Source: an uncultured Clostridia bacterium (GTDB taxonomy: Bacteria > Bacillota > Clostridia > Christensenellales > UBA1242). Taken from it: DNA of 64,000 nucleotides. Below the pieces are notes generated by a model, which had not been told where the DNA came from, made no database searches, and saw only the letters and a program-made list of their open reading frames with translations. Shown here piece by piece: positions 5,245-29,812 of the stretch (the first letter of the stretch is position 1; the number at the start of each line of letters is the position of its first letter). Location of the stretch: positions 6,183 to 70,182 of the forward strand of contig CALWEM010000022.1 in the NCBI GenBank assembly GCA_944377315.1, given 5' to 3'. A program made the position numbers and the translations under genes.

Positions 5245-5256
5245 AGAGAGGTTAAT

Positions 5257-10690: not shown

Positions 10691-13600
10691 ATGAAAATAA
10701 AAAGTTGGCTATTTTCATTGTTATTAGTTTTTGTCGGCATCGCTGGTGCTTATTCTTTAACTTTGCCAATAAACAAAATAAGTGCAGTGAGCGAAGATGC
10801 TAGTGTTTGGGATGGTAATGATTATAGCGATGAGTTTGATGAGTATAATCTTTATAAAACTGACGAAAACGGTGTTGTCAATTATTATATATACACTGCC
10901 AAAGATTTTTTATATTTTGCACACACGGTAAATAACGGCAACACATATAATCAACAAGTTGTCAACCTTTGTGTTGATATTGACCTTAATGGAAAGAAAT
11001 GGAAACCGATTGGTGTTTCCGAGAACGGTGATTCAGCCACTCAATTTGCTGGCACTTTCAATGGAAATGGATATACGATTTATAATCTCAACATTCAAAA
11101 TCCAAATAGTCCTTGGGTTGGGCTTTTTTCCACAGTTGCAAATGCCACTCTCAAAAATTTTAATTTGGTTTCTGCCAATATCAATGTTTCAAACGAAAAA
11201 GAGATTTCAGTTGGTGCTGTTGCTGGCTCAATGACTTTGTCAAGCATCATCAATGTTTCTGTGTCGGGTGAAATTTATCATTCAGGTGCCACTGGCAATG
11301 TTGGCGGTCTTGTCGGCGAAGTTGTGGGAAAACACAAAACGAGCATACCTTTTGATAAAATTGATTTTGAAAAAAATTTCAGTGATGAAGTGAAAATTTT
11401 GAATTGTCGCTCTTTGGCATCGGTTTCTGGTGTTGGTTCAGTCGGTGGTATCGCTGGCTACACCTCTCGCAGTGTCGTTATCAAAGAGTGCTATAACGAA
11501 GGTGCGATTTCAGGCATTGGGAATTCGTCAAATTATATCGGCGGAATCTTGGGCAGAACATCAAGTGACTCCACTTCAAATGTGTATAACTACACTTTGA
11601 TAACTCATTGCTATAACGCGGGCGACCTTAACTTTTCGCACGCGAGATATGCCGGCGGAATTTTGGGTTACAGTGCAAAACCGGCGAATGAGAGAATGTC
11701 ATATTTTACCATTTTATATTCATATAACAAAGGCGATTTTGTGTATGACACTTCTTCCAATCTTTCCGAATCAAAAATCGGTGGGCTTGTTGGTTACAGC
11801 AATATTCCACGCGGAGTTTATATAACCGATGAAAACTACACAAGTTTCGACAATGTTTTCAATGTGGGCGAAGTCAAAAATGATAAGGGTGAAAATATCA
11901 TTCTTTCGCAAACGGAATATTCTTTGATTGTGAATGTTCAACCAAATGCTTCAATTTTTGGTTGCAACGATATTTATTATAATGAAAGTTATGCAGAAAA
12001 ATACACTGGCTCGGTGAGCACTGTCGACACCACAGAAGACAGGTTGACAGGCATAACAGAAAGTTCGATAAAACTTCAAAAAGTGCCTTTTCTTGAAGAT
12101 AGTTTCCGCACTGCCAATTTTGGTGGGACAAACTTCTTTGGGAAAACGACAAGTGGGGAAAAGATAAACAATGTGAAAAACAGTGAGATTTGGGGAATTC
12201 AAAGTGGAATTAATGACGGCTATCCATATCTCAAAAGAACGATAAACATCAACAATGCCAACAATGATTTGTCATCCACCACTGCAACATTGTGGAAAGG
12301 CGAAGGCACAAAAGATAACCCATATCTTATATACACCGCAGAAGACTTGGCAAGAGTGGCAAAAGTGTATAATAACGGCAAGATTAATGACAAGGCTGAA
12401 GGGTTGGTATATAACAATGAAGGGAAAACCTTGGGCGGAGAAATTGTTTCTTCCACTTCACAAAACGGCAACGAAAACACAACAAGCCAGACCAAAATAA
12501 CATATTTCTCTCTTCAAAACGACATTGATTTGTCTTCAAAAGCGTGGACACCGATAGGAACAGGACCGGTCGATGACGGTAGCGGGAAAAAATTTATTAA
12601 TGCAGTTTTTGACGGAAACAATTTCACAATTTCTGGCATAAATTGTTCAATGCACGCAAATTATAAATACTTGGGACTTTTTGGCTGTGCTGAAAATGCC
12701 ATTATTCGCAATGTCATTGTGGACGATTTTCGCTTTATCGGAACTGAAGAAGGTGATGAAACAGCGAAAGGCACAATTGTTGGATGCCTAAAAAATTCTT
12801 ATGTCATTAACTGTGCTGATTTTGTCAATAGAATAGGAACCACAGAGAGCGAAAAAGTTGATTTATATACGATTGGCAGTGTCGATGCCGATGGAAAATC
12901 TTATGTTGTTTATGGTGAAAATAATAATGCTGATAACGCATTTTCTGATAATAATATTTATATAGATGCAAATATGTCTAATTTGAACCAACTTTATTTA
13001 ACATATATTAATCCAAACGGCGGAACGGTTTATGACACAATCAAGAGAGATAGTGTCGATGAGAAAGGCGAAGTGTCAGTTCATATCGGTCAAGCAGAAC
13101 TATTAATTGCAAGTAGTTCAAATACAACAAGTAGTTCAAATAGTTATAAAATACACACTGCTATAAACTCTCAATTTGGCAGTCAATATCTTTCTTGTTT
13201 GCCAACAGATATTTCATCAGGAAATAGTTATAACACTTCTTCCATAATTTTGAAAGAAGGTGAAGTGATTAATGGTTATAATTATGGCATTGTTGGTGGC
13301 ACCGAGCTTTCTTCATCAGATATAAACGATCTTATTAGCGATGGTATTGAAGCAAATTGGGGAGAAGAGGGTAAAACAACAACAATCACGATTCATTATA
13401 ATAGTTATGAAAATAGTTATGGATATGGCAATGAAGAAAGCATTATTACTTTTGATGTAAATTATAATCAATATTTTTCCAACGAGAGTTTCAAAGAAAA
13501 AGTTTTGGAAGCATTGGAAATAAAAGGTATTACAAGGACCGGCTATGAAGTTGCTGGCATTTTCACTGGATTCACAAAAAAACAATTTGGTGGAGAATTT

Positions 13601-16600
13601 TCCGGCTTTGATTATTTTGAAGACGGCGTTGGACTTTTCCTTAATCAAAATGAGGATTATTACATCAAGTGGCAAGGAAACACTTCCTATTCCATTCAAG
13701 TGAACTTGGTTGACCTTGACTCTTTCGGTTCTGTTTCCACTTCTCCAAAAAATTACACTTGGACACAAGCGGTGGAAAGTTTGAAAGTTAATTTCAGTGA
13801 CGGCACAGTTTCCGAGATTGATTTGTTGCGTGGGAATTATCGTATTCTTGAAAGCGGTTCAGCTGTTTTTGGATATAACACTTCAAATGTCGATTTGCAA
13901 GATGAAAATATCACCATTGAAATTAAATTGAAAGACGGTTTTTCTTTCAAAAATAATGATGATTTTCTTCAAGAAACAGGATTTTTGAATAACAAAGTTG
14001 ACGAACAGGTAAATGATTACATACAAAAATTTGGCTATTCAAGTCTGATAAACAATTTGAATCAAGACAACACCTTAATTCTTCAAAGAATGGTGGGTGA
14101 TGGTGAAATAAACATCAACATCGGGCGCACAAACTATTCATATAATATGGCGATTGACGAAGATGTTTCTTTTGGGCTCACGCTTCCACAGGTCACAAAT
14201 TCGGGCTATAAAGTCTTGTTTATGACAAAAGAAGGGAACTACACCACTTTGAACGAAGTTGAACCAAATATGTTCAACAAGGTTTCGGGCTATGGCAGTT
14301 ATTATTTTGGTGTCAATATGTTTGACAAATACTTTATTGCGTCCACCGATGATTTTGACAGAGTGGATTTTGGTTCAAAAGTGCCAATTTTGAATATCAA
14401 TCTTTCGGCGGACAACAAAGTGGAAGGAATTGTTCTCAATATTCAAGATGAATACAGTGCAAATCACTATTTTCTTGTGGCACTTTCCACATTGGACGGA
14501 AAAAGAACGCAAACCATATATGAAATCAATCGTCCGGTCGTTGAAAACGGCGAAATCAAAGTGGAATTGTTGGATCGTCTTGTTTATGTCACAGAAGGCA
14601 TTTTGAATGATGTTGGCGAAAACTATCAAATTCCAATCGGGACAATAGGATACAACCTAAACTATTTCACCAACACCAATTTTGGCATTGTTTTCTCCAC
14701 AGAAGATGCAAGTTCTGAAATTGTCGATTATCCAGCAAATCCAGAAGTCCTTGTTTTTGAAGATTTGAATGAAGACGGAATATATGATATGAGCGAAGAT
14801 GAGGCAAAGAAAATTTTCTATAACTTGGTGGCATCGGATGACAAGAACTACACTGAACTCGAAGTCTATTTGAACTATCAAACCACCATCGCCAACATTG
14901 AAATTTTGCAAGACAAGGTGACAGCGGACTTCAATTTCAAATTTGCCACAATAAGTGAAGATGAAAACGGCAAACTTCAACTCGTTGAATTAACTGAAAA
15001 CACACCGCAAATTGACATCTCAATCGGCAATTTACAAGATGAAAATGTGGAAAACAGAAAATCATACAATAACTCTAATGGTATATCATTAAATATAAAT
15101 AACTATAATTTTATCACTTTCACAATCAAGAATAATAACTATTATCAATTCGCTCATCGCGACAGTGGCATTTTCCCAACTGTCAAGTCAATGATGAGTT
15201 CAGGTATGGCGACAGAAATCGACAAAACCACCACAATGTATATGACACCATTGGACGAAAAAGGTGAATATTTAAGTAGTGGCTCGGTAGCAGACCCACA
15301 AAACCCAACAAACAGCATAAATTGTTCAAGTTTCTCTTCGCGTGACCCAAGTGACCCAAGTGGCGGATATAAATATTCCTACACCTACACGATGAGTTTT
15401 CCATCGGCGATATTCCCATCGAGTTGGGAAATTATCTTTGTGGTGGAAAGAGTGGATTTCCATTTGTCAGTTTCTTCGGTTTACAAGCAGACATACAATG
15501 GCGAGGAGTTTGAAGATACCACCAACGCCACCACCCTCAAAAACACCGAAAATGACGATGAGGTCACAGAACTTGATTTACTTTTTGGTGATGAATTTGT
15601 CATTCAAACCAACACACAAAATGCTGGCTACACCTTCCAAGGTTTTGAAGTGAGAAAGGACGGAGAAACCACCTTCTTCCCACCACTTAATCTTGACATT
15701 GAATATGACAAAACTTCTTATGTTATGACAATTGAAGACTTTTTGTCTTTCTATAAAGACGAATACACCACGCTTTCTTCGGATGACAAATATAGTTACG
15801 AAATTTGTGCGGTCTATGAAAGCGAAAGTGTGGCATTTCAGTCGTCAATAAGAAAGTTTATGATATTAGACTATAATGGCAACGAAAATGACTTTTATCT
15901 CAACACTGTGACCGGTTCTGTGTTGAACACAACTGGTTCAAATCTCACAAGTGGCACATTCAATTATTTTAGTGCCAACGCAAGTGGCAACGAACTTAAC
16001 AGCTCAATTGAAAATGGTTTTGCCACCTTTAACTTGTTGCAATCAAACTATTATGAGTTTTCTGGCTTTGCAATAATGACAGAAGAAACTTATAATAAGA
16101 GCGGTATTGTGGATAACTTTGGTGACAGTTATTATTACATAAATGAAGAAAGAACAAATATGGATATTTCTGTCAACAGTGGCGACTTGGAGATAACATC
16201 AAAGACGATGAGAATTTCAGGCAGAGTGATTGCAGACTATATTCGCACTTTACTGGAAGAAGACGAAATGCAAAATATATATACTGATTCGACTGTCTAT
16301 ATTTTGCCAATCTTGAAACAAAAAACTTTGGAAATAACGATAACAGACGGCTCGTCCAATAAGGTATACAGCAACAGCAAAAATGAAACAACTGACACTG
16401 AAATTGTGATGACTGTCTATTATGTCAATGGCGTGATGCTTAACTTTAGCTCGTCATATTATATCGGCGAATCTGTCAATCGTGGCAATGTTTTTGTCAC
16501 AATGAACAAAGGAAATTTGAACAGCATAATTTTGAACTCATATTTCTATTATCAAATCGGCTATGCTTCGACTTCGTGGACAATTCGATATAAACTTGAT

Positions 16601-19600: not shown

Positions 19601-22600
19601 TTAAAAGCATATTGGAAGATTGGCGAACTTGACATTTCTACACTTTCTTCACAAATAAAATATGCTGTTGGCACTTTGGACACTTTGTATGCTGTCAATG
19701 TTGGATATATGAACAATGAAGAAAGCACTTTCTTTAACTACACATATGAATTATATAAAGGCGATGAACTTCTCGCTTCCAACAATAATTTCGACCAACT
19801 TGCCATTTCGTTTGATGGCGGTGGCACAGTGAAAGACAGTGGAACATACACTCTCAAGTTCATTGTGACAATCAAAGATAACTACAAAAACATTTTGGAC
19901 ACAACAAGCGAAGAGAGTGTGACCGCAGAAATTGAATTCACGCTTGAATTTGTTAAGAACATAATTGAAGACATAACTTTCATTCCAGAAAGTGAAGAAA
20001 TTATGTATGACGGTCTTAATCATACAGGCTCTTTCATTGTCGAAATTTCATATCAACAATACAAGCAAGAACTCGACGACTATGACAGCGAAAATATTGT
20101 GACAGAAAGATATCAATACGGCACGGAGAAAAAATTTACATTCAAAATTTTGAAAGACGGCACGGAAGAAGTGAATGAAATCATTGATGTCGGCAGATAT
20201 GAGATAAGTGTCAATTTAAGCGAAGACTATTTTGAATGGTCGGAAAACTCCAAGGTTTTGACCTATGTCATTAACCGCTACGACATTGATTTGAGCACCT
20301 ATGAACTTGACAGAACCAAAAACTTTAACTCGCAAGACACCGCTTTCACCAACAATATTCGAGTTGCCGGCGAAGTTGTTTCTCTCACATTAACAAGAGC
20401 AGACTTGGGCGAAGATTTGGGTGACTATGACCTATTCCTTGACAATTTCACTTCACTCAATAACAACAACTTCACAGTTTCTTATGACGGCACCGTTTTG
20501 TTTGATGGCACAGACTACACTGCTCAAAAATCAACAACAGCCATTGCAAAACTTTCCATTGTTCAAGCGGGCGATTTGCGAATTTATTGGGAAATTTCTG
20601 ACAGTGTTCCAAACATTGCATCATTTGAGTATAATGAAAATGGTTACAGCGTTGCTTTCACCGAGCAAGCAGAAATCGTCATTACAACGGGAGGTGAAAA
20701 TGCCAAAACCTTGAATTTGAAGATGTATGATTTGGGACAGGGCAGTGAGATTTCAAATGAAACAATATTAAATATACTCCATCCACTTCTTGCCGACATA
20801 AACATCATTTTGACAAGTGCAGGCAATGAATATACAACCGCGGTCGATGCTGGAAACTACTCCTTCTCTTTGCGAGTTGATGAAGGTATGGCAATAGGGC
20901 AATACTTTAAGAATATATACTTCTCATCTGACTATACTTTGCAAATAATCTCGGAAGGTATTGATGTCAATTCTTTCTCGTTTGTGAAAGAATATGACGG
21001 ATTGAACACAATTTATCTCACTTTGTCAAATCAAGTGATTGATGATATTTCCACCTATCAAGGTATATATGTTGAAGGTGTGTTTGCCGAAACTCACGCT
21101 GGAGAAGATATTGCTGTCAATGTCACTTTGAAGACCACCAGTGAAAATATCAATGACCTTATTAACTTCCAACTTTCATCATCTTTGACAAGTGGGCAAA
21201 TTCTGAAAAGAGAAGCGGAAATTATTTTCAGTTTCAAAGAAGACACCTTCACTTATGGCGAACTTTCGAGTGACAACTTTGCCGACCAAATCACATACAT
21301 TGTCAAGGACGGCGAAGAAGATATAACCGAACTTTTCCGTGGCTCTTTCTATACCATAAACTACACCTTGTCAGCCGGCGGAAGCGAGATGCAAACAAAC
21401 ACACAAGGATATATCTATGCAAACACCTACACTTTGCAAACGCTTGCAACCTATGACGATTTTGACCTTGATGAAGTTTTGCCAAGTCTACAAGTAACAC
21501 CATTTGAATATTCCTTGGAAGTTGGAGAAGGCTTCATCACTGTCACGGCACTTGATGAGGTTTCCAAAGCGTATGTCGAAAACATATATGTTGAAGAAAC
21601 AGGCGACAGCATTCAAGTCAGTTTCTATGTTCCAAGTGATATTGTTGGCACAACAAATCAAGTTGGTGACTATAATTTAACTTTGGAAAATGGGCAATAT
21701 TCATATCTATATTCAAATGGCAATATTCGTGTTTCCATTGATGAAAATAACACAGGCTTCAAAGTTGGTTCATATGACGGCACTTTGTATCTTGAAATTG
21801 AAGATGAAGAAATTTTGACGCGTCCATATAATGCCAAGACCTACACAATCACCGCATCGGAAACCACTTTCATAATAACCATTGAAAATGAAGATGAAAC
21901 ATTCTCTGTTCAAAGCAATTTCAAATTTTATAACTATAATAACGGCGAATTGACACCAATTGAAAATTCCACTCTTGTGTTTGAAAGCATCGGTATCACT
22001 TCTTCAAACCAAAACACCTTCTCGCAAGTTGGAAACTACAAACTCACACTTGACGCAGTGGCAACTGGCTACACAAATGTTTCCTTCATCAAAAACTATA
22101 CTTTCAGCATAACACCAGTCGAGTTGAATTTTGACGGAACAGGACTCTTTAACAAGGTGTATGACGGCACAACAATTGTGGAAATTGAGGTGACAGAAGG
22201 AATTTTTGAAGGTGATGAAGTTATTGTCCGTGGTATCTATCAAAATGCCACTGCAGGAGTCGACAAAGATGTTCGATTGACCTTGTCTGGGAGTTCGGCG
22301 AAGAATTACACACTTTCTTCTTCCACCACAAAAGGCACAATTGAAAAGAAAAATGTCACCATTTCTTTGGCACAAACTTCTTATCAATATGGCGACATAA
22401 GAACAACCACAAATCTCAATTTTGTTGTCAAGGACGGCGACAATGAGATTTCCAAAGGCTTCTACACTGTTGTCAAACAAGAAATTCAATATGAAGGAAC
22501 GGGAATTCTTCCAGTGAATGTTGATGGCTATGATGTTGAGATTGAGGTGGAGAGCGAAAACTACAACATAACTCCAACCACACTTCACTTTGAAATCACC

Positions 22601-25600
22601 AAACGCCAAATCAACATAACCTTTGCTTCAGCCGGAATTTATATGGCTTCATTTGGAAGTGAAGAAACACTTTCAGACACTTTCATAAGAGATTACACAA
22701 CCGAATTTAATGAACAAATTGAAATTGAATTCACAAGAGAAAGTGGCAGTGAAGTCAAATACTACAAAATCACTGATGCTCAAATTGTCAGCCAAGATGC
22801 AACATCATTAAACTATGAAATTGGCGAAATTGTCGACAATGTTGGAGCATATCGCATTGTGTCATCTTCAAGTCGTGTTTATCTTCTTGCCAGCAACAAA
22901 GACACAATAACTTCACTTGAAGACGGCGTTCTTCTTGAGTTTACTTATGACGGCAACTCATATGACAGAGTGGCTCTTGAAGTGGGTGATGCTTCCTACA
23001 CTTTGAAGATATATAACTCGCAAAACACTCTTATTGAACAAACTTTTGCTCTCAATTTGTATACCTACAACGAAGACACGGATGTATACACTCGTTTGAC
23101 CACAATTTTTGACCCAACCATTAAAGCGGAAAGTTTCTCAATCAGTGAGCTTATTCAAAATGCTGGTAACTACTATCTCACAAACAGCGATGTGACAAGT
23201 CAGAATTTTGCTGTTAAACTTGGAAAGAATAACACACTTTTTGCTTTCCAAGTCACGGTCAACAAGCGTCAAGCATTCTTTATGAAAGAAACCATTGAAC
23301 AAACATTCAACAATGAAAATGTTGTGATTTTCTATGAAAATGCCAAAGAAATTTTGACCAATATTCTTGCCAATGACAATTTTGGCGTGACACTGGAATT
23401 CAAAACGGAAGACGGCTCACCTGCAAAATACGCTGGCAATTCATACAAAATTGAAGGAACAATCATTGGCAACACCAACTATGAACTTGTCTACACTCTC
23501 GCTGATGGCACACAAGTGACTGGCACAATCTTGAAAGCGCCAATTCAAGTCAATGTCAATGACCAAAATGTTGTCTATGGTGACGAAACAACTTTTCTTG
23601 ATGTCCAAATTGCATACACCTTTCAAAGCGAAACAATTGACCTTAAAAACTATGAAAAACTCGATGAACTTTCATTGGTTATCACACTTGAAGATGCACT
23701 GGGGAATTTGGCAGAATATTCTTCATCAGGCTATCTCAATGCCGGTGAATATAAGATGAAATATAAAGAACTCATCTCTGACGATTTCTATATTGACACA
23801 AACGGATTTATTTCCAACGGCGTTGCTGGCACAAATCTTGTCACAACTTTCACAGTCAGTCAAAAGACCCTTTCTCTTCTCAAAACTTCAGAAGAATTGC
23901 AAACAATTTTCACAAAATATTATGACGGCACACATATTGTTGAAATATATCGTGATGGCACTCTTCGATTTGGGTTTGAAGGTGAAATTTCTGGCGATGA
24001 TGTTCAAGTTTCAAGTGCTGAATATGCTTCCATTAATGTCGGCACTGGCATTGAAGTCAAATTCCTTTTGGATGGAAATGACAGTGGAAACTACTTCTTG
24101 CCTTCATACACAAATGGTCTCATTAACGCCATCACAATCAAACTCTCTTTTGACAAAGGTGGGGAAACGGAAGAAGAAGAGAACAACATCTTGTCAAATG
24201 TCGACCTTGCTGGACTTTCGACAATTGAAAAATTGAATTACCCATTTGTCAACAATGAAACTTTGACTTCCAACTCTCAAACTTCAGAAACTGCTGGGCA
24301 AGATAATTTCCCTTCAACCTTGACAGGAAAAACAGGATATTATTTCAGTAACTGGGTGATGGAATTTGAAGTGATAGCAAATTCTGTGGAAAGAGAATAC
24401 ATTGAAAATCTAGCAAAACAACTTAATTTGTCAAATGCATACACAGGGAATATTTTGACGGTCACTGTCGGCAATAATCGTGCCACCGTTTCCTTCATTA
24501 ACACTCTTTTAAGTGATGAGTCTGATTATTTTGGCTATTATTATCTAGGCAAGGAAGAAGTTGAGTTCACTTTCAAGGCAGTTTGGACAACTGAAACATT
24601 CGAAGTTTCTGTGACAACCGAAAAAGACGGCGTCAACACCACAGAATATGCCACAACTTTTGTCAATGATTATCAGATGCCACAATACACATATCGAAAC
24701 AGTTTCGCTTATGGCACACCACTCACCATCAAAGTTGTTTTGGATGACCATATCGTTGCCAGATTCTTTGATGAGAAAGATGTGGAATATGAAAACGGCA
24801 ACGGCATCTCCATAACGACCACACTTAACCCTGAAACACAAAAAGAAGAAGCAGTCTTCTTTGTGGAAAAACTTTCAAGAGCGATGAACATTGTTGTCAA
24901 ACTTGATTTCAAAGATGTCACTGTCACGCTCAATCTTCAAGACTATGATGGCGTTGTGGCGGTGGATGATGAGAGATTCCAAGAATATTCTGACGGCGTC
25001 TTCCGCTGGGAAACCAACTATGAAGATATTGCTGATGTGACGCTCGATGAACTTCCAGTTTTAACCTATGTTGGCTCGATCACAGATGCATATGTGTTCA
25101 GCGATGGAAACGCCGGTTCATCTCAAGTGCCATCAAGTTTGTTTGATTCCACTTTGCTTGTTTCATATGTTTATAAAAATGGTGACGGATACTCAATCAC
25201 ATACACACCAATTTTTGATGAACTTTCTGTGAGCGTCATTTTGAACTTTAACTATGACGGCAATTTTGAAAATAACGACACCGATGACAAAAAGGAAATT
25301 TCAGTTGGCTACAAAAACACCTTCAATTCCAGTGATGATTGGGTGGAAACACCATTGCGTGAAGGTTATGACTTCCTTGGCTGGTATTTTGACAGCGAAA
25401 GCGAAACCGCAGTGACCGGTGAAAGCACAATGGAAAGTATGGCACAGGTTGTTTTGTTTGCTCGTTGGCAAATTCAACAAAACAATGTCTATCTCACTTT
25501 TGATGACAAGATGACTCTTGAGTCCGCTTTGGTGAACGATGAAGAGTTTGAATATAAAATTGAAAACGGAAATTACATCTTTGAAAACTTGACCTTCAGT

Positions 25601-28600
25601 GACAAAATTGTTTTGACTTTCACTCTCACACAAGGTTATAACATTGGAAGCGTAACTTATCATTATTTTGGTGGAGAAGATATCATAGTTTCAACCTTTG
25701 AAAATGATGGAACTGTCGGGAAAGTGACTTTCAGCGTTCCAGCAAAACCAACAGCATATTTGGAAGTTAAAAGCGGTTTCAACAGCAACGAAATCACAGT
25801 CAGTGGTGAACATATTGAAAATGTGACAGCAAAAACAACCGCCGGCGAAGAAATCGATGTTGAAAACAACGCCTTTACTGTCGACACAAATGTTGATATT
25901 GTCATTGAAGTTAAAATTGTGAAAGGATATTTGTATAACAATGAAATATCCTTGACAGAAAACTTTACTGCAACATTTAGCGAAGAAACAAACATTTTGA
26001 CAATCACACTTTTCAATATTAACTCTCAACTAAAAATCGAAGTTGGAACAAGAGTGCGTGGAAACAAAGTGACTGTTGTTTTTGAAGAACCATCACATAA
26101 CATCGAATTTGTGGTAGACAACATTATCACCACAGAAAATATTTTTGAAGTGTTCACGGAAGAAACATTTGCCTTCTACACTGACATTCTTCACGGCTAC
26201 AAAATAAGTGAAGTTGTTTCAACAGATGAGGACACAGAAATTTCCTTCAATGTGTATAATGATGAAACAAGCCTTCTCAATGGTTATTTCTATGTGGAAG
26301 TAAAAAATGTCACCACCGACATAACTTTGACAATCAAGACGACAAAGGAAAAATTCACAGTTATTGTTGAAGTTATCGCATATGATGAATATGGCAGACT
26401 TGTGGAAAACACCGATAATGTTGCCTATGTCGACGGCAAGGAGAGTGTGACATATGAATATTTGACCGAAGTGACCTTGTCGGCAACGACAGAGTCGGAA
26501 TATGGCTTTGCTGGCTTCAGTTTGAACAAAAACACCATTTTTGATTCCAAAAACCCAACAACTTATGTGGTCGAAGACAATGTGACTATATACGCCATCT
26601 TCTCAAAACTCAAATATAACATTATCTTTATGACCTACAACCACATTGACCTTGACAACTCTGAAGAAGAGATATATGAAAGCTTATATTATCAAATTTT
26701 CTATGAAGATGAAACTTTTTCACAACAAATCACCGGCACGACACTTTTCTATGGCTCTTCAATCACTCTTTATCTCCAAATTCCAAATGGTTACACCTAT
26801 TACGGTTTTGGTTGGTATCAAAGAAACCATCCAGACGACAAAAAATATATTGCATATGCTGGCGATGAATTTGAAAACAGCATCTTCCTTGAAGCATCAA
26901 TTTTCAGTGAACTTGAAAATGAGTTTGATGTCAATGTTTTCGTTGCTTTACAACCAAAAGAAGTCCAAATCAATGTTTCATCATATCTTGATTTTGATGG
27001 AATCTATGAAGAAGATTTGGTTGCAGGCAACATTTCACTCGTGAACGAAAATGCCGAAGGTGTGAATTCTTATGGCTATATTGAAGGAACAAACAATCAT
27101 TATTCTTCAAATTCCTTCAATGGGCAATTGTTAGATAGTAGGTCCTTCCAAGTTATCTCTCACACAAACAGTTCAATATATCTCAAAATATATTCCGAAA
27201 AAGAAGATTATTACTTCTCGAAAGTGTCAGCTTCAAATGGTATCACGGTGAAATCGCTGGGCAGATTCCACGATGGCATAAGGTCATACTATCTATATCA
27301 ATTTGCTGGATATGTTGGTGGCAGTGACAGAGCAGTGGAAATTGAAGTTTATTTCAAACCAGAAAAGAGAATTATTGACTTCGATTTTGTCAATGAAGAT
27401 GGAAGCACAGTGGAAGGTGGCAGTTTCTTCACAAAAACCGACCCTTCAAACAGCTACAAGGTTTGGTCTGATGGTAACAACTTTGACAAAATGTCTGTGA
27501 CAAGTTTTGTCGATTCAAGTTATATGGTGGTGGCATATGTCCGATTGGGTTTTGTCATTAACACAAAAAATTCATATGTCATTTTCGATGAAAGCGTTGT
27601 TAATGTCTATGACATTTCATATGAGCTTCTTTTGACAGAAGAAACGAACTACACATATATTGTCACATTTATGGTGAAAGACTATAAGGCAAACAGCAAA
27701 ATCAGTGTTGTGCTTTCGCCACAGACCTACACAGTTTTGTTGAAGGATACCACTCTTGAAGAAAATGAAGTTTTGCTGGAAATTAGGAATGCCAAATTCC
27801 ACGAAGTGCTGGATTTAAGTGAAGAGAACAGCGAAAATCTTGTTTTTGATGAAGAAGTATTCTCATACAGCGATGGCTATTTGAATATTGTCCAAACAAA
27901 AGAAGACCACAATTTTGGTGGATATTTCACATACGAAAATGGTGTTGGAACACAATATATCAACACATTGGGCGTGGCAGACAAAATCTTCTTGGAAAAT
28001 GGCTATGTTTTGGACGAACAGAACAATATTTATATTCTTTCTGAAAATGCAGAAATCATCGATGGACAAGTGGTCATCACTTTGTATCTATATTGGCTCT
28101 ACCTTAAAACTCAAATTACCTTTGAAGTTGTGCCAGAGGTCGAAGTTGATTTTGACGCACTTGACATTGTTCAAGGTGTGGATGAGTATTCTTCTTGGTT
28201 TAATGAAGATAGCCCATTATATATCGAAGTTGCCTACAACACCGATATAAACATTATTGCACCTCAATTGAATGGCTACAGTTTCCACCGATTCTTGATT
28301 AAACAATATGATGGTGCTGGAAATCAACTTCAAGATGTTGTAAGTTATCAAGAGTCAGTGCCTTGGTCAACAAACGAATATGATAACATCGTTCGCGTGG
28401 AAATAACAATGTTCTATTTCGCCAAGGTTGATGTCATTTTGTATGGCGGAGAAATGGAATATGAAATTTCTCAAACAACGGAAGATAATCGTGCGCGTGT
28501 TCTTTTGAGTCAGGGTTATGTGGATACCACAAAAGAGTTCACTCTTTCCGCGCTTGATTCAGATGGCTACACCTTCCAATATTGGATTAATATGTCCAAC

Positions 28601-29812
28601 AATATGAGATATTCGACACAAAATTTGACTCTGCAAATCACCGAAAAAACTTCCTTCTTCTTGTTCTGTCAAGGCAAGACGATAACCTTGAAGTTTGATG
28701 AATATGATGCAACAAACGGACAAATATACATTTTGGAAATCAATTCTCCACTTAATGGAATCTCTGCAAAACCGCTGGGAGTTTTCAGCAATGGCTCGTT
28801 CTCAAAAACAACAACAAGTGTTGATGTTCGTGTGGGCGACACGGTTACCTTTGTCACAAAAGTGCATTTTGGATATGGTGTCGAGTGGAATATTGATGAT
28901 GTCGAACTCAAGAAAATGGACAGCGAATATTATTATTTCACTGTCAAATTGACAGAAGAATTGGTGGGCGAAGCAATTGAGATTATTCCGATCTTTTCTG
29001 GCGAAAGCGTGGCGTTCTATTTCAGCCAAGACTTTGCTGAAAGTGAGAAGATTGAAAATGCACAAGACAACAACGATGCCACAAACTGCGGATATTTCGT
29101 CTTCAATGGCGAACCAAGCGATGTGGTTGTTGAAAGTATTTTTGTGAACATTGAAATCGGCGTTGTTCTCTCCTTAAGATATGAAATAAGAGAAATCTTC
29201 GTGAAAAACAACAGCGGTGTGAGCATTGATGTCACAGAATGTTACAACAGTGACCTTGGCACAATCACCTTCACTTCTCAATACCTTCAAGAAAACAATA
29301 TTGCCGGCACGCTTATACTGGAAGTTATCTATGGACGCCTATACTTTGAAATCGGCGAGATGGAAGAAGATGGCTCGGGCAGTGAAGATGGCCCATATAT
29401 CATTTCAACAATTGATGAACTCACACACTATATGCAGAAAATTAACAGTGGGGCAGTGAACGACAGTGGCATCAAATACAGTGAAGCACATTATGTTCTT
29501 GTTTCAAGTTTCAATTTGAGTGCAAAATTCTGGACGCCGATTGGCACAGAAGAAAATCCATTCAATGGCACTTTCAATTTTAATGGCAACACAATAACAT
29601 CCATATATCTTGCACAGATTTACAGTATGACAAGTTATGGTGGACTTTTTGGAGTTGTCGGCGAAAAGGCAAACATATATCTTTCGGAAGACAATTTCTG
29701 GTATGTCTATGTGATTGTCAGCGTTGTTGGTGTTCTTGTCATTCTTCTCGTCATTCTTCTTGTTTGGAACAAAAAGAAGAAGAAAATCCGTGAAGAACTT
29801 GAAAGACGATAG
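10691..29812 (+). CDS. Giant cell-surface protein (6373 aa, one uninterrupted 19.1-kb ORF): signal peptide, GLUG-type modules at both ends, Listeria-Bacteroides-type repeats, MBG/YDG-type repeats, and a C-terminal TM anchor
   Basis: Signal peptide MKIKSWLFSLLLVFVGIAGAYS. FAGTFNGNGYTIYNL plus repeated GG[IL].G motifs lie at about nt 11045-11800, with a second module around DNPYLIYTAEDL...FDGNNFTISGI. GYQFVGW (16880-16900), YAVWQ..KV.LNANGG, GFQFDGFY and GYDFLGWYF (about 25363-25390) look like Listeria/Bacteroides repeats. Many [KE]YDG[TL] and (Y)G[DE] repeat units lie at about nt 20000-24200. A C-terminal PFNGTFNFNGNTI...GGLFG module is at about 29558-29660. The TM FWYVYVIVSVVGVLVILLVILLVW (29696-29767) is followed by NKKKKKIREELERR. 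There is no LPXTG. Confidence 0.9.
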   Translation: MKIKSWLFSLLLVFVGIAGAYSLTLPINKISAVSEDASVWDGNDYSDEFDEYNLYKTDENGVVNYYIYTAKDFLYFAHTVNNGNTYNQQVVNLCVDIDLNGKKWKPIGVSENGDSATQFAGTFNGNGYTIYNLNIQNPNSPWVGLFSTVANATLKNFNLVSANINVSNEKEISVGAVAGSMTLSSIINVSVSGEIYHSGATGNVGGLVGEVVGKHKTSIPFDKIDFEKNFSDEVKILNCRSLASVSGVGSVGGIAGYTSRSVVIKECYNEGAISGIGNSSNYIGGILGRTSSDSTSNVYNYTLITHCYNAGDLNFSHARYAGGILGYSAKPANERMSYFTILYSYNKGDFVYDTSSNLSESKIGGLVGYSNIPRGVYITDENYTSFDNVFNVGEVKNDKGENIILSQTEYSLIVNVQPNASIFGCNDIYYNESYAEKYTGSVSTVDTTEDRLTGITESSIKLQKVPFLEDSFRTANFGGTNFFGKTTSGEKINNVKNSEIWGIQSGINDGYPYLKRTININNANNDLSSTTATLWKGEGTKDNPYLIYTAEDLARVAKVYNNGKINDKAEGLVYNNEGKTLGGEIVSSTSQNGNENTTSQTKITYFSLQNDIDLSSKAWTPIGTGPVDDGSGKKFINAVFDGNNFTISGINCSMHANYKYLGLFGCAENAIIRNVIVDDFRFIGTEEGDETAKGTIVGCLKNSYVINCADFVNRIGTTESEKVDLYTIGSVDADGKSYVVYGENNNADNAFSDNNIYIDANMSNLNQLYLTYINPNGGTVYDTIKRDSVDEKGEVSVHIGQAELLIASSSNTTSSSNSYKIHTAINSQFGSQYLSCLPTDISSGNSYNTSSIILKEGEVINGYNYGIVGGTELSSSDINDLISDGIEANWGEEGKTTTITIHYNSYENSYGYGNEESIITFDVNYNQYFSNESFKEKVLEALEIKGITRTGYEVAGIFTGFTKKQFGGEFSGFDYFEDGVGLFLNQNEDYYIKWQGNTSYSIQVNLVDLDSFGSVSTSPKNYTWTQAVESLKVNFSDGTVSEIDLLRGNYRILESGSAVFGYNTSNVDLQDENITIEIKLKDGFSFKNNDDFLQETGFLNNKVDEQVNDYIQKFGYSSLINNLNQDNTLILQRMVGDGEININIGRTNYSYNMAIDEDVSFGLTLPQVTNSGYKVLFMTKEGNYTTLNEVEPNMFNKVSGYGSYYFGVNMFDKYFIASTDDFDRVDFGSKVPILNINLSADNKVEGIVLNIQDEYSANHYFLVALSTLDGKRTQTIYEINRPVVENGEIKVELLDRLVYVTEGILNDVGENYQIPIGTIGYNLNYFTNTNFGIVFSTEDASSEIVDYPANPEVLVFEDLNEDGIYDMSEDEAKKIFYNLVASDDKNYTELEVYLNYQTTIANIEILQDKVTADFNFKFATISEDENGKLQLVELTENTPQIDISIGNLQDENVENRKSYNNSNGISLNINNYNFITFTIKNNNYYQFAHRDSGIFPTVKSMMSSGMATEIDKTTTMYMTPLDEKGEYLSSGSVADPQNPTNSINCSSFSSRDPSDPSGGYKYSYTYTMSFPSAIFPSSWEIIFVVERVDFHLSVSSVYKQTYNGEEFEDTTNATTLKNTENDDEVTELDLLFGDEFVIQTNTQNAGYTFQGFEVRKDGETTFFPPLNLDIEYDKTSYVMTIEDFLSFYKDEYTTLSSDDKYSYEICAVYESESVAFQSSIRKFMILDYNGNENDFYLNTVTGSVLNTTGSNLTSGTFNYFSANASGNELNSSIENGFATFNLLQSNYYEFSGFAIMTEETYNKSGIVDNFGDSYYYINEERTNMDISVNSGDLEITSKTMRISGRVIADYIRTLLEEDEMQNIYTDSTVYILPILKQKTLEITITDGSSNKVYSNSKNETTDTEIVMTVYYVNGVMLNFSSSYYIGESVNRGNVFVTMNKGNLNSIILNSYFYYQIGYASTSWTIRYKLDDGEDGTSTAINTHNLSTYFNENNLSTTFTTDYAIQIERFWTANTFQVNYYSGDSRYNTFLGNNIFGNSIENNYSRTARYNSTTTLENNSFSLTGYQFVGWRVFKNLGYQTVEVVNPNAGNGLFSAGDDITNLITGTDQILDENNFGLSLEVYAVWQAKTYKVLLNANGGNIDGQETITLSLEYNSTFMEAVCDGYDIEELFDTYLNQIVKRPGFQFDGFYSYDGSSSKSMLNLVTEETYLRNTISGFVDTNNLDEPVLTLFATWVYDESTSIIFENDLSYNYTGDKIEVALSDFEVTGNNIVVTNTDTLFNLQYANEEAGVDISFTFTRDENSSTEIVQVGDEENGCTYKFLIGENVGSYQLNLSYNLTDIGSNVYSIGDFNFVTVSFIISITKADISFKQSDEKGIWLKNIQYLVSVVEEQEVIDEYNSFETFEELRQSVSQKEGFELTSESVYEYLFMKYYNMINTKSSQIHTLKNWKIRDGENGNDYISYYGTYYYGADEYLDNFDGLSDERRERAEILKNNMFLLSYEFGVNIREYVLAGEETSRYNVGDVLLTSDTADAVIGEELSISSIEIYSTSVLVPNYSYTVRAYITEASTGKLDNYNVATDSSGRRYIVLDDVYMLIQVLRLKNNAISKSTYYTGDIPFVNWVGSDQLPHYYYDGSTFYQFEKDSELYIDLEIETSNAGQSDVDTIFDFYDKENYLNVSSIRIVTFDDDTGFNFTNYTSYFNIILDETFTFTIFNVVDTAQISLTPKYFTKKNQFQTFTDLPESVLASLETGLFSVTSFTYSTDNASTKTYSLTDSNGNATPLNNGQYFSEDGKILLFTLENNNSNAPIFYTSSAVVSVGIRINQSLLTEYIKYYTTTDEIINDLTQEYSVTTEYTLTLKTKNENGVFESDIEYTDGSLTYLEYYSVFSDLVKIYYDMNLSGVSNTNSSLLQLNYDTTDALTTLVYSNLVISDMKYTTVTGAERSYTNLFDSITGRFMGADIYSPHKFITLKAYWKIGELDISTLSSQIKYAVGTLDTLYAVNVGYMNNEESTFFNYTYELYKGDELLASNNNFDQLAISFDGGGTVKDSGTYTLKFIVTIKDNYKNILDTTSEESVTAEIEFTLEFVKNIIEDITFIPESEEIMYDGLNHTGSFIVEISYQQYKQELDDYDSENIVTERYQYGTEKKFTFKILKDGTEEVNEIIDVGRYEISVNLSEDYFEWSENSKVLTYVINRYDIDLSTYELDRTKNFNSQDTAFTNNIRVAGEVVSLTLTRADLGEDLGDYDLFLDNFTSLNNNNFTVSYDGTVLFDGTDYTAQKSTTAIAKLSIVQAGDLRIYWEISDSVPNIASFEYNENGYSVAFTEQAEIVITTGGENAKTLNLKMYDLGQGSEISNETILNILHPLLADINIILTSAGNEYTTAVDAGNYSFSLRVDEGMAIGQYFKNIYFSSDYTLQIISEGIDVNSFSFVKEYDGLNTIYLTLSNQVIDDISTYQGIYVEGVFAETHAGEDIAVNVTLKTTSENINDLINFQLSSSLTSGQILKREAEIIFSFKEDTFTYGELSSDNFADQITYIVKDGEEDITELFRGSFYTINYTLSAGGSEMQTNTQGYIYANTYTLQTLATYDDFDLDEVLPSLQVTPFEYSLEVGEGFITVTALDEVSKAYVENIYVEETGDSIQVSFYVPSDIVGTTNQVGDYNLTLENGQYSYLYSNGNIRVSIDENNTGFKVGSYDGTLYLEIEDEEILTRPYNAKTYTITASETTFIITIENEDETFSVQSNFKFYNYNNGELTPIENSTLVFESIGITSSNQNTFSQVGNYKLTLDAVATGYTNVSFIKNYTFSITPVELNFDGTGLFNKVYDGTTIVEIEVTEGIFEGDEVIVRGIYQNATAGVDKDVRLTLSGSSAKNYTLSSSTTKGTIEKKNVTISLAQTSYQYGDIRTTTNLNFVVKDGDNEISKGFYTVVKQEIQYEGTGILPVNVDGYDVEIEVESENYNITPTTLHFEITKRQINITFASAGIYMASFGSEETLSDTFIRDYTTEFNEQIEIEFTRESGSEVKYYKITDAQIVSQDATSLNYEIGEIVDNVGAYRIVSSSSRVYLLASNKDTITSLEDGVLLEFTYDGNSYDRVALEVGDASYTLKIYNSQNTLIEQTFALNLYTYNEDTDVYTRLTTIFDPTIKAESFSISELIQNAGNYYLTNSDVTSQNFAVKLGKNNTLFAFQVTVNKRQAFFMKETIEQTFNNENVVIFYENAKEILTNILANDNFGVTLEFKTEDGSPAKYAGNSYKIEGTIIGNTNYELVYTLADGTQVTGTILKAPIQVNVNDQNVVYGDETTFLDVQIAYTFQSETIDLKNYEKLDELSLVITLEDALGNLAEYSSSGYLNAGEYKMKYKELISDDFYIDTNGFISNGVAGTNLVTTFTVSQKTLSLLKTSEELQTIFTKYYDGTHIVEIYRDGTLRFGFEGEISGDDVQVSSAEYASINVGTGIEVKFLLDGNDSGNYFLPSYTNGLINAITIKLSFDKGGETEEEENNILSNVDLAGLSTIEKLNYPFVNNETLTSNSQTSETAGQDNFPSTLTGKTGYYFSNWVMEFEVIANSVEREYIENLAKQLNLSNAYTGNILTVTVGNNRATVSFINTLLSDESDYFGYYYLGKEEVEFTFKAVWTTETFEVSVTTEKDGVNTTEYATTFVNDYQMPQYTYRNSFAYGTPLTIKVVLDDHIVARFFDEKDVEYENGNGISITTTLNPETQKEEAVFFVEKLSRAMNIVVKLDFKDVTVTLNLQDYDGVVAVDDERFQEYSDGVFRWETNYEDIADVTLDELPVLTYVGSITDAYVFSDGNAGSSQVPSSLFDSTLLVSYVYKNGDGYSITYTPIFDELSVSVILNFNYDGNFENNDTDDKKEISVGYKNTFNSSDDWVETPLREGYDFLGWYFDSESETAVTGESTMESMAQVVLFARWQIQQNNVYLTFDDKMTLESALVNDEEFEYKIENGNYIFENLTFSDKIVLTFTLTQGYNIGSVTYHYFGGEDIIVSTFENDGTVGKVTFSVPAKPTAYLEVKSGFNSNEITVSGEHIENVTAKTTAGEEIDVENNAFTVDTNVDIVIEVKIVKGYLYNNEISLTENFTATFSEETNILTITLFNINSQLKIEVGTRVRGNKVTVVFEEPSHNIEFVVDNIITTENIFEVFTEETFAFYTDILHGYKISEVVSTDEDTEISFNVYNDETSLLNGYFYVEVKNVTTDITLTIKTTKEKFTVIVEVIAYDEYGRLVENTDNVAYVDGKESVTYEYLTEVTLSATTESEYGFAGFSLNKNTIFDSKNPTTYVVEDNVTIYAIFSKLKYNIIFMTYNHIDLDNSEEEIYESLYYQIFYEDETFSQQITGTTLFYGSSITLYLQIPNGYTYYGFGWYQRNHPDDKKYIAYAGDEFENSIFLEASIFSELENEFDVNVFVALQPKEVQINVSSYLDFDGIYEEDLVAGNISLVNENAEGVNSYGYIEGTNNHYSSNSFNGQLLDSRSFQVISHTNSSIYLKIYSEKEDYYFSKVSASNGITVKSLGRFHDGIRSYYLYQFAGYVGGSDRAVEIEVYFKPEKRIIDFDFVNEDGSTVEGGSFFTKTDPSNSYKVWSDGNNFDKMSVTSFVDSSYMVVAYVRLGFVINTKNSYVIFDESVVNVYDISYELLLTEETNYTYIVTFMVKDYKANSKISVVLSPQTYTVLLKDTTLEENEVLLEIRNAKFHEVLDLSEENSENLVFDEEVFSYSDGYLNIVQTKEDHNFGGYFTYENGVGTQYINTLGVADKIFLENGYVLDEQNNIYILSENAEIIDGQVVITLYLYWLYLKTQITFEVVPEVEVDFDALDIVQGVDEYSSWFNEDSPLYIEVAYNTDINIIAPQLNGYSFHRFLIKQYDGAGNQLQDVVSYQESVPWSTNEYDNIVRVEITMFYFAKVDVILYGGEMEYEISQTTEDNRARVLLSQGYVDTTKEFTLSALDSDGYTFQYWINMSNNMRYSTQNLTLQITEKTSFFLFCQGKTITLKFDEYDATNGQIYILEINSPLNGISAKPLGVFSNGSFSKTTTSVDVRVGDTVTFVTKVHFGYGVEWNIDDVELKKMDSEYYYFTVKLTEELVGEAIEIIPIFSGESVAFYFSQDFAESEKIENAQDNNDATNCGYFVFNGEPSDVVVESIFVNIEIGVVLSLRYEIREIFVKNNSGVSIDVTECYNSDLGTITFTSQYLQENNIAGTLILEVIYGRLYFEIGEMEEDGSGSEDGPYIISTIDELTHYMQKINSGAVNDSGIKYSEAHYVLVSSFNLSAKFWTPIGTEENPFNGTFNFNGNTITSIYLAQIYSMTSYGGLFGVVGEKANIYLSEDNFWYVYVIVSVVGVLVILLVILLVWNKKKKKIREELERR

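Follow-up and report, generated by a model that had tools for sequence, protein, structure and literature searches.

A giant, predicted membrane-tethered fibre protein with a beta-helix head at a conserved locus of gut Clostridia

The closest described systems in functional architecture are the giant surface proteins Ebh of S. aureus and Embp of S. epidermidis. Ebh is a giant Gram-positive surface protein in which a C-terminal transmembrane (TM) domain provides membrane anchoring (PMC4856396), and both are Firmicute proteins on the MDa scale that carry a secretion signal at the N-terminus and, instead of an LPXTG motif, a TM segment at the C-terminus, features that they share with the protein described here (PMC4856396, PMC3868527). 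Adhesion is among the roles proposed for them, as is envelope or osmotic protection. Two other groups of proteins are related to it through parts of its sequence. Proteins with GLUG or Peptidase_M26_N domains, among them the N-domains of IgA1 proteases and BACOVA_03286 of B. ovatus (PDB 3n6z), are about 600-1400 aa long and either rely on SLH, T9SS or LPXTG-type devices for their anchoring or possess an M26 catalytic domain. A survey of giant genes (10.1101/2023.11.21.568195) includes large Clostridia surface proteins, likewise from mammalian or bird gut Clostridia, with which Flg_new, Flg_new_2 and YDG units are shared. The giant proteins of Omnitrophota are of another kind and combine numerous TM regions with SecA DEAD helicase domains that are divergent (10.1101/2023.11.21.568195), whereas the protein described here has two hydrophobic segments and no SecA or DEAD match in Pfam.

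This protein is encoded by a giant ORF located at 10691..29812 (+) of a 64-kb stretch of DNA, which was analysed as a whole and is referred to as the window. The ORF starts with ATG, extends for 6373 codons and contains one stop only, the terminal TAG. At its own base composition, the probability of a stop per codon is 0.070, so that 6373 stop-free codons would be expected by chance with a probability of ~1e-201, and 195-614 stops are present in each of the remaining five frames. A Shine-Dalgarno sequence (GAGG, 10683-10686) ends 4 nt before the start. The encoded protein has a computed mass of 717 kDa, a pI of 4.2 and a net charge of -534. Independent assemblies from ENA/Logan matched the gene base-for-base over its 5' 6.8 kb (L001) and its 3' 9.9 kb (L005-L007), and separate gene calls span the full length, with 6373 and 6375 aa. 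Zero differences inside the ORF were detected across the retrieved assemblies, strain variation being read at the protein level instead, and at the DNA level the gene is free of tandem repeats and of long direct repeats. Because internal DNA repeats are absent and the independent assemblies are identical, a collapse or expansion of the assembly is ruled out. The ORF, which a preliminary description of this DNA had regarded as genuine and under selection, is therefore confirmed as a real, selected gene that encodes a secreted protein.

The gene is preceded by an intergenic region of 502 bp (10189..10690, +) with 15% GC and TTAATATTTTT-type direct repeats, which presumably contains the promoter; a promoter consensus scan of this upstream region gave as many matches as expected from shuffled sequence. 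Downstream, the next gene is invariably uppP (29871..30626, +), at a distance of 58 nt. As this gap holds no terminator-like site, co-transcription of both genes is possible. The neighbouring genes agree with the preliminary description, gltX being located upstream and uppP downstream, with no secretion, glycosylation or sortase gene flanking the ORF. No Rfam match was obtained when the window was scanned at gathering thresholds.

Hydropathy analysis revealed only two strong hydrophobic segments in the protein, at aa 5-25 and aa 6337-6360, with KD values of 2.13 and 3.37, respectively. The first is part of a signal-peptide-like N-terminal segment (aa 1-25; 10691..10765, +), in which MKIK is followed by a hydrophobic core and GAYSL is conserved in the collinear protein P0262. 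The layout is that of a short basic n-region and an h-region of ~17-19 residues, followed by small residues at GAYS/ISA that are also conserved in P0262, in keeping with the signal peptide noticed earlier. The second segment is a C-terminal TM helix (29699..29770, +) that begins at an invariant Trp and was identified by hydropathy and by the family alignment and also modelled as such by AF2. It is followed by a predicted cytoplasmic tail of 13 aa, NKKKKKIREELERR (29771..29809, +), for which the family consensus is RKRKK-REEL-xKR. More than 30 homologues, with ORFs that are open for at least 3650 aa, share this ending of cap module, TM helix and basic tail. LPXTG was absent from the C-terminus of the giant protein, from all these homologues and from every ORF within the window, so the C-terminal TM tether without LPXTG that had been proposed at first stands. 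Two further large secreted proteins encoded in the window are also TM-anchored; within the window, this and the lack of LPXTG are what speaks for the putative envelope without sortase anchoring that the preliminary description had suggested. The other large proteins of the window are not paralogous to the giant protein.

An ending in which motif, TM helix and basic cluster are conserved in more than 30 species could also be read as a cleavable sorting signal, recognised by an as yet unrecognised sortase- or exosortase-like enzyme that would leave the mature protein linked to the wall or released. A match of the TIGR01167 LPXTG_anchor model to the TM and basic part points in this direction, but it is weak (12.9 bits, cut-off 15.9) and covers model positions 13-34 only. 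In E<=10 scans of the last 60 and the last 150 aa, none of the other NCBIfam C-terminal sorting models (PEP-CTERM, GlyGly-CTERM, Firmicu-CTERM etc.) reached its cut-off, and the sub-threshold matches were TM-driven only (GG_III-CTERM, 10.7 vs. 22; Heimdall-CTERM, 11.6 vs. 24). Moreover, no motif similar to LPXTG is present, the conserved motif sits within a folded cap/first-rung domain that is homologous to modules 1 and 2 described below, the tail runs past the basic cluster with the conserved REEL-xKR, unlike typical sorting signals, and no candidate enzyme gene lies near the ORF. A sorting signal is thus quite improbable. With regard to a polymorphic toxin, this identity was rejected, as the C-terminus is a TM anchor and no toxin domain was found there.

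The N-terminal part of the exported region contains module 1 (aa 64-400; 10880..11890, +), a helical cap followed by a right-handed beta-helix of the GLUG/M26_N type, as identified by Pfam, AF2 and Foldseek. Pfam GLUG (PF07581) matched it with 23.9 bits, above the gathering cut-off of 20.5, in four stretches, the best of them at aa 173-195. The AF2 model showed a pLDDT of ~85-95 over aa 60-340, and Foldseek returned a probability of 1.0 for its match to 3n6z, 7uvl, 7uvk, 7jgj and 6xja. The beta-helix of the GLUG/Peptidase_M26_N proteins mentioned above superposes on this model, so the predicted fold of module 1 can be taken as that of a GLUG/M26_N-type beta-helix. Homologues of the N-terminal part are surface proteins with SLH, T9SS or Flg_new partner domains, and GLUG proteins of ~1200 aa commonly have the same succession of cap plus helix and second cap.

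A secreted enzyme, either an IgA protease of the M26 type or a beta-helix enzyme that degrades glycans, was also considered, since Foldseek matched module 1 to the N-domains of IgA1 proteases and, with less strength, to lyases and tailspikes with a beta-helix, and since the Peptidase_M26_N profile scored slightly under its Pfam threshold (26.6 bits, cut-off 27.7; profile positions 183-250 only). The matches to lyases and tailspikes, however, were found at E >=0.1. Neither Peptidase_M26_C nor any other catalytic Pfam domain was detected and HExxH is absent from all 6373 residues, on which grounds the identity as an M26 protease was rejected; an enzymatic function of either type appears very improbable.

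Module 2 (aa 533-709; 12287..12817, +) consists of a second cap and the start of a short beta-helix (DNPYLIY...WTPIG...FDGNNFTISG...GLFG), and module 3 (aa 6228-6324; 29372..29662, +) of a cap and the first rung only (PYIIS...FWTPIGTEENPFNGTFNFNGN...GGLFG), both being delimited by self-BLAST, profile and AF2. Self-BLAST ties the two to module 1 with E values of 1e-5 to 1e-8 (1.5e-8 for module 2 vs. module 1), and a profile of module 3 built from 28 species recovers the other two modules at 1e-10 and 3e-11. Modules 2 and 3 have no Pfam match, GLUG being absent from the segments holding them even at E<=10, and they are related solely to the cap/first-rung part of module 1 and of GLUG proteins. 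Therefore, of the three GLUG-type modules in the preliminary description, three related modules do exist, but a GLUG beta-helix is supported by Pfam and by fold in module 1 only; module 3, with its cap and about one rung, has no GLUG repeats and was misnamed in this respect. Conservation over 40 aa peaks in the core of module 3 (aa 6281-6320; 0.68). Compared to GLUG proteins, the giant protein differs in that its head is placed on a stalk of ~5600 aa, in the absence of a catalytic domain and HExxH, and in the third, cap-only copy that abuts the TM helix.

The location of these modules bears on the topology. Module 1 begins ~40 residues past the N-terminal hydrophobic segment, and 12 residues separate the end of module 3 from the TM helix. 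If the N-terminal segment were an uncleaved signal anchor, both ends of the protein would be held in the membrane, where modules 1 and 3 would meet, and the rest would form a giant loop. Such double anchoring would account for a cap-only module at the membrane, which is otherwise unexplained, and the cleavage site of the signal peptide is only putative. The classic signal-peptide layout of the N-terminal segment, its lower hydropathy compared to the TM helix and the conserved small residues argue instead for cleavage, as do the ordinary signal peptides borne by homologous GLUG proteins. Double anchoring is accordingly regarded as improbable, and the N-terminus is taken below as the free, distal end.

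Between modules 2 and 3 extends a long and mostly unique stalk. Its first part (aa 720-3000; 12848..19690, +) is the least conserved of the protein, contains no internal repeats and has no sequence match in Pfam or the PDB, apart from one weak Flg_new-like unit at aa 2043-2160 (Flg_new match at aa 2043-2071). A central array follows (aa ~3000-4500; 19688..24190, +), in which Pfam, self-BLAST and in-family profiles detect 3-4 copies of a super-repeat of ~385 aa with YDG/MBG-like units, spaced in the DNA by 1152/1125 nt. Pfam YDG matched aa 3808-3879 (nt 22112-22327) with 45.6 bits, whereas MBG_3 remained at 16.4 bits, below its cut-off of 25. The third part (aa 4600-6200; 24488..29290, +) is composed of beta-rich domains, according to Pfam, profiles and AF2, including Flg_new-type units at aa 4858-4924, 5252-5306 and 5911-6062 and related units at aa 4940-5225. 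Two of them pass Pfam thresholds, Flg_new (PF09479) at aa 4858-4924 with 29.2 bits (cut-off 27) and Flg_new_2 (PF18998) at aa 5252-5306 with 31.9 bits (cut-off 23.6), and the additional ones were seen by in-family profiles only. AF2 modelled the last 323 aa as beta-sandwich domains and the TM helix, and Foldseek returned for this model non-significant Ig-like matches only.

Pfam scans of the whole length gave matches limited to GLUG, M26_N, YDG, MBG and Flg_new-type families, and PDB sequence searches with both protein halves and with the 28-species profile gave none, leaving ~85% of the protein without a Pfam or PDB relative. Profile-HMM annotation therefore finds GLUG, YDG, Flg_new and Flg_new_2 and leaves most of the sequence without match, which confirms the Listeria/Bacteroides repeats of the preliminary description in two units but places most of the protein outside the named families. 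In this it differs from known proteins with Listeria-Bacteroides repeats, YDG or MBG, since only three of its units pass Pfam and most of its sequence is unique.

The clade-wide conservation of position and size, and the context of reduced genomes in which it occurs, are additions to the preliminary description. The gene has a positional orthologue in at least 28 species-level MAGs, in the order giant gene-uppP-Ca-ATPase-holB-PSP1, and synteny of uppP-Ca-ATPase-holB-PSP1-MTS is strict at 28 loci. Seven orthologues, belonging to six clusters of uppP orthologues, have lengths of 5853-6370 aa, as obtained indirectly from the gene calls adjoining uppP orthologues. Single collinear alignments to orthologues cover 3300-4560 residues with 28-56% identity, the N-terminal halves of distant orthologues lying outside the comparison; P0262 is collinear with the window protein over its full length, and locus L058 extends collinearity to aa 1866. 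Conservation climbs towards the membrane-proximal end, with the most conserved extended stretch of the stalk at aa 5720-5960 (27848..28570, +; mean identity 0.46-0.57 over 28 species), and all orthologues end in cap module, TM helix and RKRKK-REEL tail. Among strains, the P0265 variant is 98.1% identical to the window protein, and 47 of the 121 differences and all indels fall in a variable zone at aa 501-1000 (12191..13690, +). As judged from these alignments and gene orders, the giant gene belongs to the core genes of a gut Clostridia clade and keeps its position there.

These properties could also be read as those of a structural protein instead of an adhesin, namely a membrane-tethered scaffold, ruler or coat that would span or cover the cell wall and support envelope integrity or cell size, as has been proposed for Ebh, the precedent for a TM-anchored giant protein (PMC4856396, PMC3868527). 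Core-gene status, a fixed location in a housekeeping locus adjoining uppP in 28 species, a length kept tightly at 5853-6373 aa, a collinear and non-repetitive sequence with few indels, and conservation that is strongest near the membrane would all suit such a role; among adhesins, a constant size, a steady number of repeats and membership of the core genome are less usual than among structural proteins of the envelope. On the other hand, the distal end carries a beta-helix head of a type common on surface and binding proteins, and the hotspot of strain variation at aa 501-1000 is also distal, as would suit an exposed interaction surface. The likeness to Ebh is furthermore one of functional architecture and not of homology, as no sequence kinship to the Ebh repeat families was found in the whole-length Pfam scans. 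Ebh has a highly repetitive sequence, which strain comparisons often show truncated (PMC4856396), whereas the giant protein is largely non-repetitive, collinear and conserved in size across the clade, has beta-helix cap modules at both ends and belongs to hosts with genomes of ~1 Mb or smaller. We consider a structural role without adhesion rather unlikely, although it is the alternative to which we give most weight.

The reading that we favour, with moderate confidence, is that of a giant type I membrane-tethered fibre with a distal beta-helix binding head, for which we infer a role as an adhesin. The Sec signal peptide would export the N-terminus and would then presumably be cleaved, and the single C-terminal TM helix would halt transfer, leaving the basic tail of 13 residues in the cytoplasm and ~6300 residues outside, probably as an extended fibre; the beta-sandwich structure of this fibre has been modelled for ~1100 residues only. 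At its distal end the fibre would present the GLUG/M26_N-type head of module 1, followed by the cap and short helix of module 2 and then by the long beta-rich stalk with its YDG/MBG-like super-repeats and Flg_new-type domains, and the strongly conserved membrane-proximal part would close in the cap-only module 3 against the membrane. No ligand-binding domain of known specificity was identified in the protein; the most likely role would be long-range attachment through the distal head region, with host mucus, a particle or another cell acting as partner as the putative target.

The host clade provides a context for this proposal. One of the syntenic orthologue loci (L053) belongs to a genome labelled Ca. 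Caccovivens sp., with a uppP 65% identical to that of the window, and Ca. Caccovivens has been assigned to UBA1242 (PMC8035907). On the basis of this one named relative and of the shared synteny, the clade that carries the giant gene is probably the Christensenellales family UBA1242, with genomes of ~1 Mb or less, of which the gene would take ~2%. UBA1242 has reduced genomes and uncharacterised membrane proteins, and the predicted lifestyle is that of an obligate symbiont or parasite taking metabolites from other cells (PMC12306168). Across animal guts, this family and the gut Clostridia with reduced genomes related to it are widespread; they are uncultured and predicted to depend on other cells, with no interaction factor named (PMC12306168, PMC13155120).

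We tentatively propose, as a possibility well short of an even chance, that the giant protein is a clade-defining attachment tether of genome-reduced UBA1242-type Clostridia, a size-conserved and membrane-rooted fibre of perhaps ~0.2 micrometres. Its beta-helix head, distal and evolving fast, would choose which partner cell or host surface these metabolically dependent bacteria live on, and on the membrane side a conserved coupling device would be made up of the cap module, the TM helix and the REEL tail, all of them invariant. The protein marks ~5000 residues of conserved sequence without known domain and joins a cap-only beta-helix module to a TM anchor. As a gene at a fixed locus, occupying ~2% of the genome and encoding ~6000 aa that are predicted to be surface-exposed and vary mainly distally, it is a concrete candidate interaction factor, and the hypothesis of partner dependence thereby becomes testable. 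Large surface proteins of microbes with reduced genomes and partner dependence, the Patescibacteria/DPANN-type lifestyles that have been invoked for UBA1242, offer an analogy of lifestyle only, with no homology to the giant protein; if the tether proposal is true, this protein would correspond, in a Firmicute, to the machinery for attachment that is being sought in Patescibacteria and DPANN.

The preliminary description of this region had reported a single uninterrupted ORF of 6373 codons, and this observation was confirmed. The ORF (10691..29812, + strand) ends in TAG and carries a GAGG Shine-Dalgarno sequence 4 nt 5' of its ATG. With a per-codon stop probability of 0.070, calculated from the base composition of the ORF itself, the chance of 6373 codons without a stop is ~1e-201, and the remaining five frames contain 195-614 stops each. 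When compared with independent assemblies from other samples, all of them based on short reads, zero differences were detected within the ORF, either over its 5' 6.8 kb (contig L001) or over its 3' 9.9 kb (contigs L005, L006 and L007), and separate full-length gene calls gave 6373 aa (ENA) and 6375 aa (98.1% identical). The concern about a repeat-driven mis-assembly does not apply, as Tandem Repeats Finder and a direct-repeat search revealed only short repeat matches of low identity inside the gene, thus ruling out repeat collapse or expansion.

With an alignment of the C-terminal region (A1) as query, a scan of GTDB, one genome being taken for each species, detected 38 loci, nearly all in gut MAGs whose labels were uncultured Clostridia, Christensenella, Catabacter or 'Lachnospiraceae'. 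In about 33 loci the frame was open across the whole 10 kb upstream (at least 3650 aa), and these share one type of C-terminal end, consisting of a cap module, GLFGVLG, a TM helix with an invariant Trp at its start and RKRKK-REEL-xKR. Downstream, the order uppP-Ca-ATPase-holB-PSP1-methyltransferase was kept in 28 loci, even where the identity of the housekeeping proteins dropped to 50-65%. Each syntenic orthologue aligned with the giant protein in one collinear BLASTP segment of ~3300-3700 residues (28-56% identity), and one metagenome contig lengthened this collinearity to 4560 columns, back to aa 1866. Orthologue lengths were taken from gene calls adjoining the uppP orthologues, the homologue search having returned only proteins of up to ~1400 aa; the seven calls, which came from six clusters of uppP orthologues, gave 6369, 6363, 6301, 5853, 5960, 6370 and 5929 aa.

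An exhaustive search with aa 701-1900 against 1.84 billion representatives retrieved only the protein itself, a full-length relative (P0262, 6411 aa) and two fragments. P0262 is collinear over its full length at 45% identity, with the signal peptide and all three cap-type modules described below in common. Conservation climbs towards the membrane, from 0.25-0.45 in most of the stalk to 0.46-0.57 at aa 5720-5960 and 0.68 in the core of module 3, and identity to P0262 goes from 33-40% within aa 1000-2000 up to 53-59% within aa 5400-6373. Between the giant protein and its 98.1%-identical strain variant, 121 differences were counted; 47 of them, and every indel, fall in aa 501-1000. The giant protein is a clade-wide, positionally fixed and size-conserved surface protein of largely unique sequence, and this is the new finding of the present analysis.

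In one rabbit-gut MAG (locus L029), a single in-frame TAA at 9233-9235 cuts the orthologue into 3077 and 594 aa, which may stem from a sequencing error or mark a pseudogene or a genuinely split gene. More distant giant ORFs, each open for at least 3480 aa, were found in other genomic contexts and other MAG lineages (loci L037-L040, L042 and L045), with an analogous C-terminus of cap module, TM helix and RRKRKK tail; those of L038-L040 are distantly collinear with the giant protein (22-25% over 760-1640 residues).

Gene annotation agreed with the neighbourhood described previously. On the 5' side lie dnaB, two uncharacterised membrane/lipoprotein genes and gltX (8557-10188), on the 3' side uppP, a P-type Ca-ATPase gene, holB, PSP1 and a methyltransferase gene, and no secretion, glycosylation or sortase genes flank the ORF. 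The intergenic region upstream (10189-10690) is unusually long (502 bp), has 15% GC and contains several short TTAATATTTTT-type direct repeats; no Rfam match was found in it, and matches to promoter consensus sequences were no commoner than in shuffled sequence. As the gap to uppP is of only 58 nt (29813-29870), a terminator-like hairpin was not found in it and the adjacency is kept in 28 species, co-transcription of both genes is possible. The product of gltX, glutamate-tRNA ligase, scored 284.5 against an NCBIfam equivalog cut-off of 289.95, and several further housekeeping genes also scored well below their cut-offs, which fits a divergent, fast-evolving lineage. In the Ca-ATPase gene (31545-33300), contig L005 carries 28 substitutions, 25 of them synonymous, yet is identical across the giant ORF; a similar cluster in L006 was also observed, and this pattern suggests a tract acquired by recombination with a related strain.

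The encoded protein (717 kDa, pI 4.2, net charge -534) has a high content of T, N, S and Y, and hydropathy analysis revealed two strongly hydrophobic segments only. The first (aa 5-25, MKIK followed by a hydrophobic core) bears out the signal peptide previously claimed as far as a signal-peptide-like segment is concerned, whereas its cleavage is something that we infer; in a minor alternative it would stay uncleaved and the protein would be doubly anchored. The second (aa 6337-6360, KD 3.37) is a TM helix followed by the basic tail NKKKKKIREELERR, in agreement with the proposed C-terminal TM anchor in place of LPXTG. LPXTG is absent from the protein and TIGR01167 aligned only with the TM/tail half, below its cut-off, so that its identity as a sortase substrate was rejected. 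A novel cleavable sorting signal at the C-terminus is likewise a minor alternative, and no NCBIfam C-terminal sorting domain matched.

Two other large secreted proteins of the window, of 1477 aa (56050-60483, +) and at least 1095 aa (60711-64000, -, running off the window end), also have a C-terminal TM helix and a short basic tail; they showed weak Ig-like Pfam matches only and are unlike the giant protein and each other. Lipoprotein-type N-termini were found in proteins of 1070 aa (1598-4810, +, ..VACGT) and 363 aa (7447-8538, +, ..FAGCGT), neither with Pfam or NCBIfam matches, and an unmatched 268-aa protein (6630-7436) has an N-terminal TM segment. No ORF of the window contains an LPXTG-like motif. 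These TM-anchored and lipoprotein-like proteins and the missing LPXTG are only suggestive of a sortase-free envelope.

Self-BLAST joined aa 65-190, 537-709 and 6228-6324 at 30-35% identity, a 28-species profile of module 3 detected modules 1 (1e-10) and 2 (3e-11), and the C-terminal query pulled out GLUG-annotated proteins via module 3 alone; by these sequence comparisons the three modules are real. In an AlphaFold model of aa 1-800 obtained from a 50-sequence alignment, aa 60-340 (pLDDT ~85-95) folded as a helical cap leading into a right-handed beta-helix, module 2 being a second cap plus a short helix start. The model covering the final 323 residues (pLDDT 77) shows, in this order, two beta-sandwich domains, module 3 with only a cap and about one rung, a poorly modelled linker and the long TM helix. 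Thus, of the GLUG-type modules proposed at both ends, three related modules were found, but the GLUG beta-helix is restricted to module 1 (Pfam GLUG, 23.9 bits, four stretches). A cap-only beta-helix module fused to the anchor is an unexplained feature.

Among the structures matched by the aa 1-800 model in Foldseek were the Bacteroides ovatus 'putative IgA1 protease' 3n6z (E 1e-6) and, at probability 1.0, N-terminal domains of IgA1 proteases from streptococci and Gemella; Peptidase_M26_N matched within aa 119-195 below threshold. Despite this GLUG/M26_N beta-helix class of module 1, an M26 protease identity was rejected, and an enzyme of any kind is a minor alternative, as both a Pfam catalytic domain and HExxH are absent.

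Pfam coverage was otherwise sparse. Of the Listeria/Bacteroides and MBG/YDG repeats expected, Flg_new (aa 4858-4924, 29.2 bits), Flg_new_2 (aa 5252-5306, 31.9 bits) and YDG (aa 3808-3879, 45.6 bits) were found, with weak Flg_new-type matches at aa 2043-2071 and aa 5936-5983, whereas MBG_3 was sub-threshold (16.4 bits). NCBIfam added nothing further, and no PDB sequence matched either half of the protein or a profile that covers its last ~3700 residues in 28 species. Sliding-window profiles of the orthologue alignment revealed a YDG/MBG-like super-repeat of ~385 aa in 3-4 copies from aa ~3000 to ~4500, in line with the 1152- and 1125-nt spacing of repeats in the DNA, scattered Flg_new-like units (aa 1600-1662, 2048-2160, 4623-4685, 4860-4939, 5218-5409 and 5911-6062) and related beta units at aa 4940-5225. 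In aa 720-3000 no internal repeats were found except for weak Flg_new-like units.

The plan kept family-wide comprises a secretion-type N-terminus with a beta-helix head close to it; towards the C-terminus come beta-sandwich domains and then one TM helix, whose tail follows the positive-inside rule. The earlier interpretation is partly supported, and we favour, with reasonable though not high confidence, a secreted, TM-tethered extended fibre that binds via its distal head. The protein would be exported by Sec with cleavage of the signal peptide, and stop-transfer at the C-terminal helix would yield a type I membrane protein. If the chain is mostly beta-sandwich-like (~4 nm per ~100 residues), the fibre would extend ~0.2 micrometres, with the strain-variable distal head region possibly responsible for binding and the conserved membrane- or wall-proximal part traversing the envelope. 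The uppP and polysaccharide deacetylase genes of the window, together with reported sporulation genes, point to the presence of a wall.

The nearest functional precedent is Staphylococcus aureus Ebh, which is also giant, carries a secretion signal and is anchored by a C-terminal TM segment (PMC4856396), so C-terminal TM tethering is not novel in itself and the protein belongs to an already known kind, the giant membrane-tethered Gram-positive surface proteins. Ebh is not homologous to it and differs in its repetitive make-up and in the truncations frequently seen between strains; giant proteins of the Omnitrophota type differ in having many TM regions and SecA-like domains. The main rival to the binding fibre, an Ebh-like structural role in the envelope, would agree with the core status of the gene and the constant size of its product, although we consider it unlikely.

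A genome labelled Candidatus Caccovivens sp. contains one of the syntenic loci (L053), and the UppP of this locus is 65% identical to that of the window. This genus belongs to the Christensenellales family UBA1242 and its type genome is of 1.1 Mb (Gilroy et al., PMC8035907), most UBA1242 genomes being <1 Mbp (Begmatov et al., PMC12306168); no giant gene is mentioned in the latter study or in a chicken-caecum study (PMC13155120). The shared synteny and the UppP identity suggest that the genome of the window also belongs to UBA1242. If it is of UBA1242 size, this single gene accounts for 1.7-2.5% of it. The carriers are gut Clostridia of very small genome size, probably dependent on partners, and the giant protein may, as a tentative and rather doubtful proposal, be a lifestyle-defining attachment tether of the clade.
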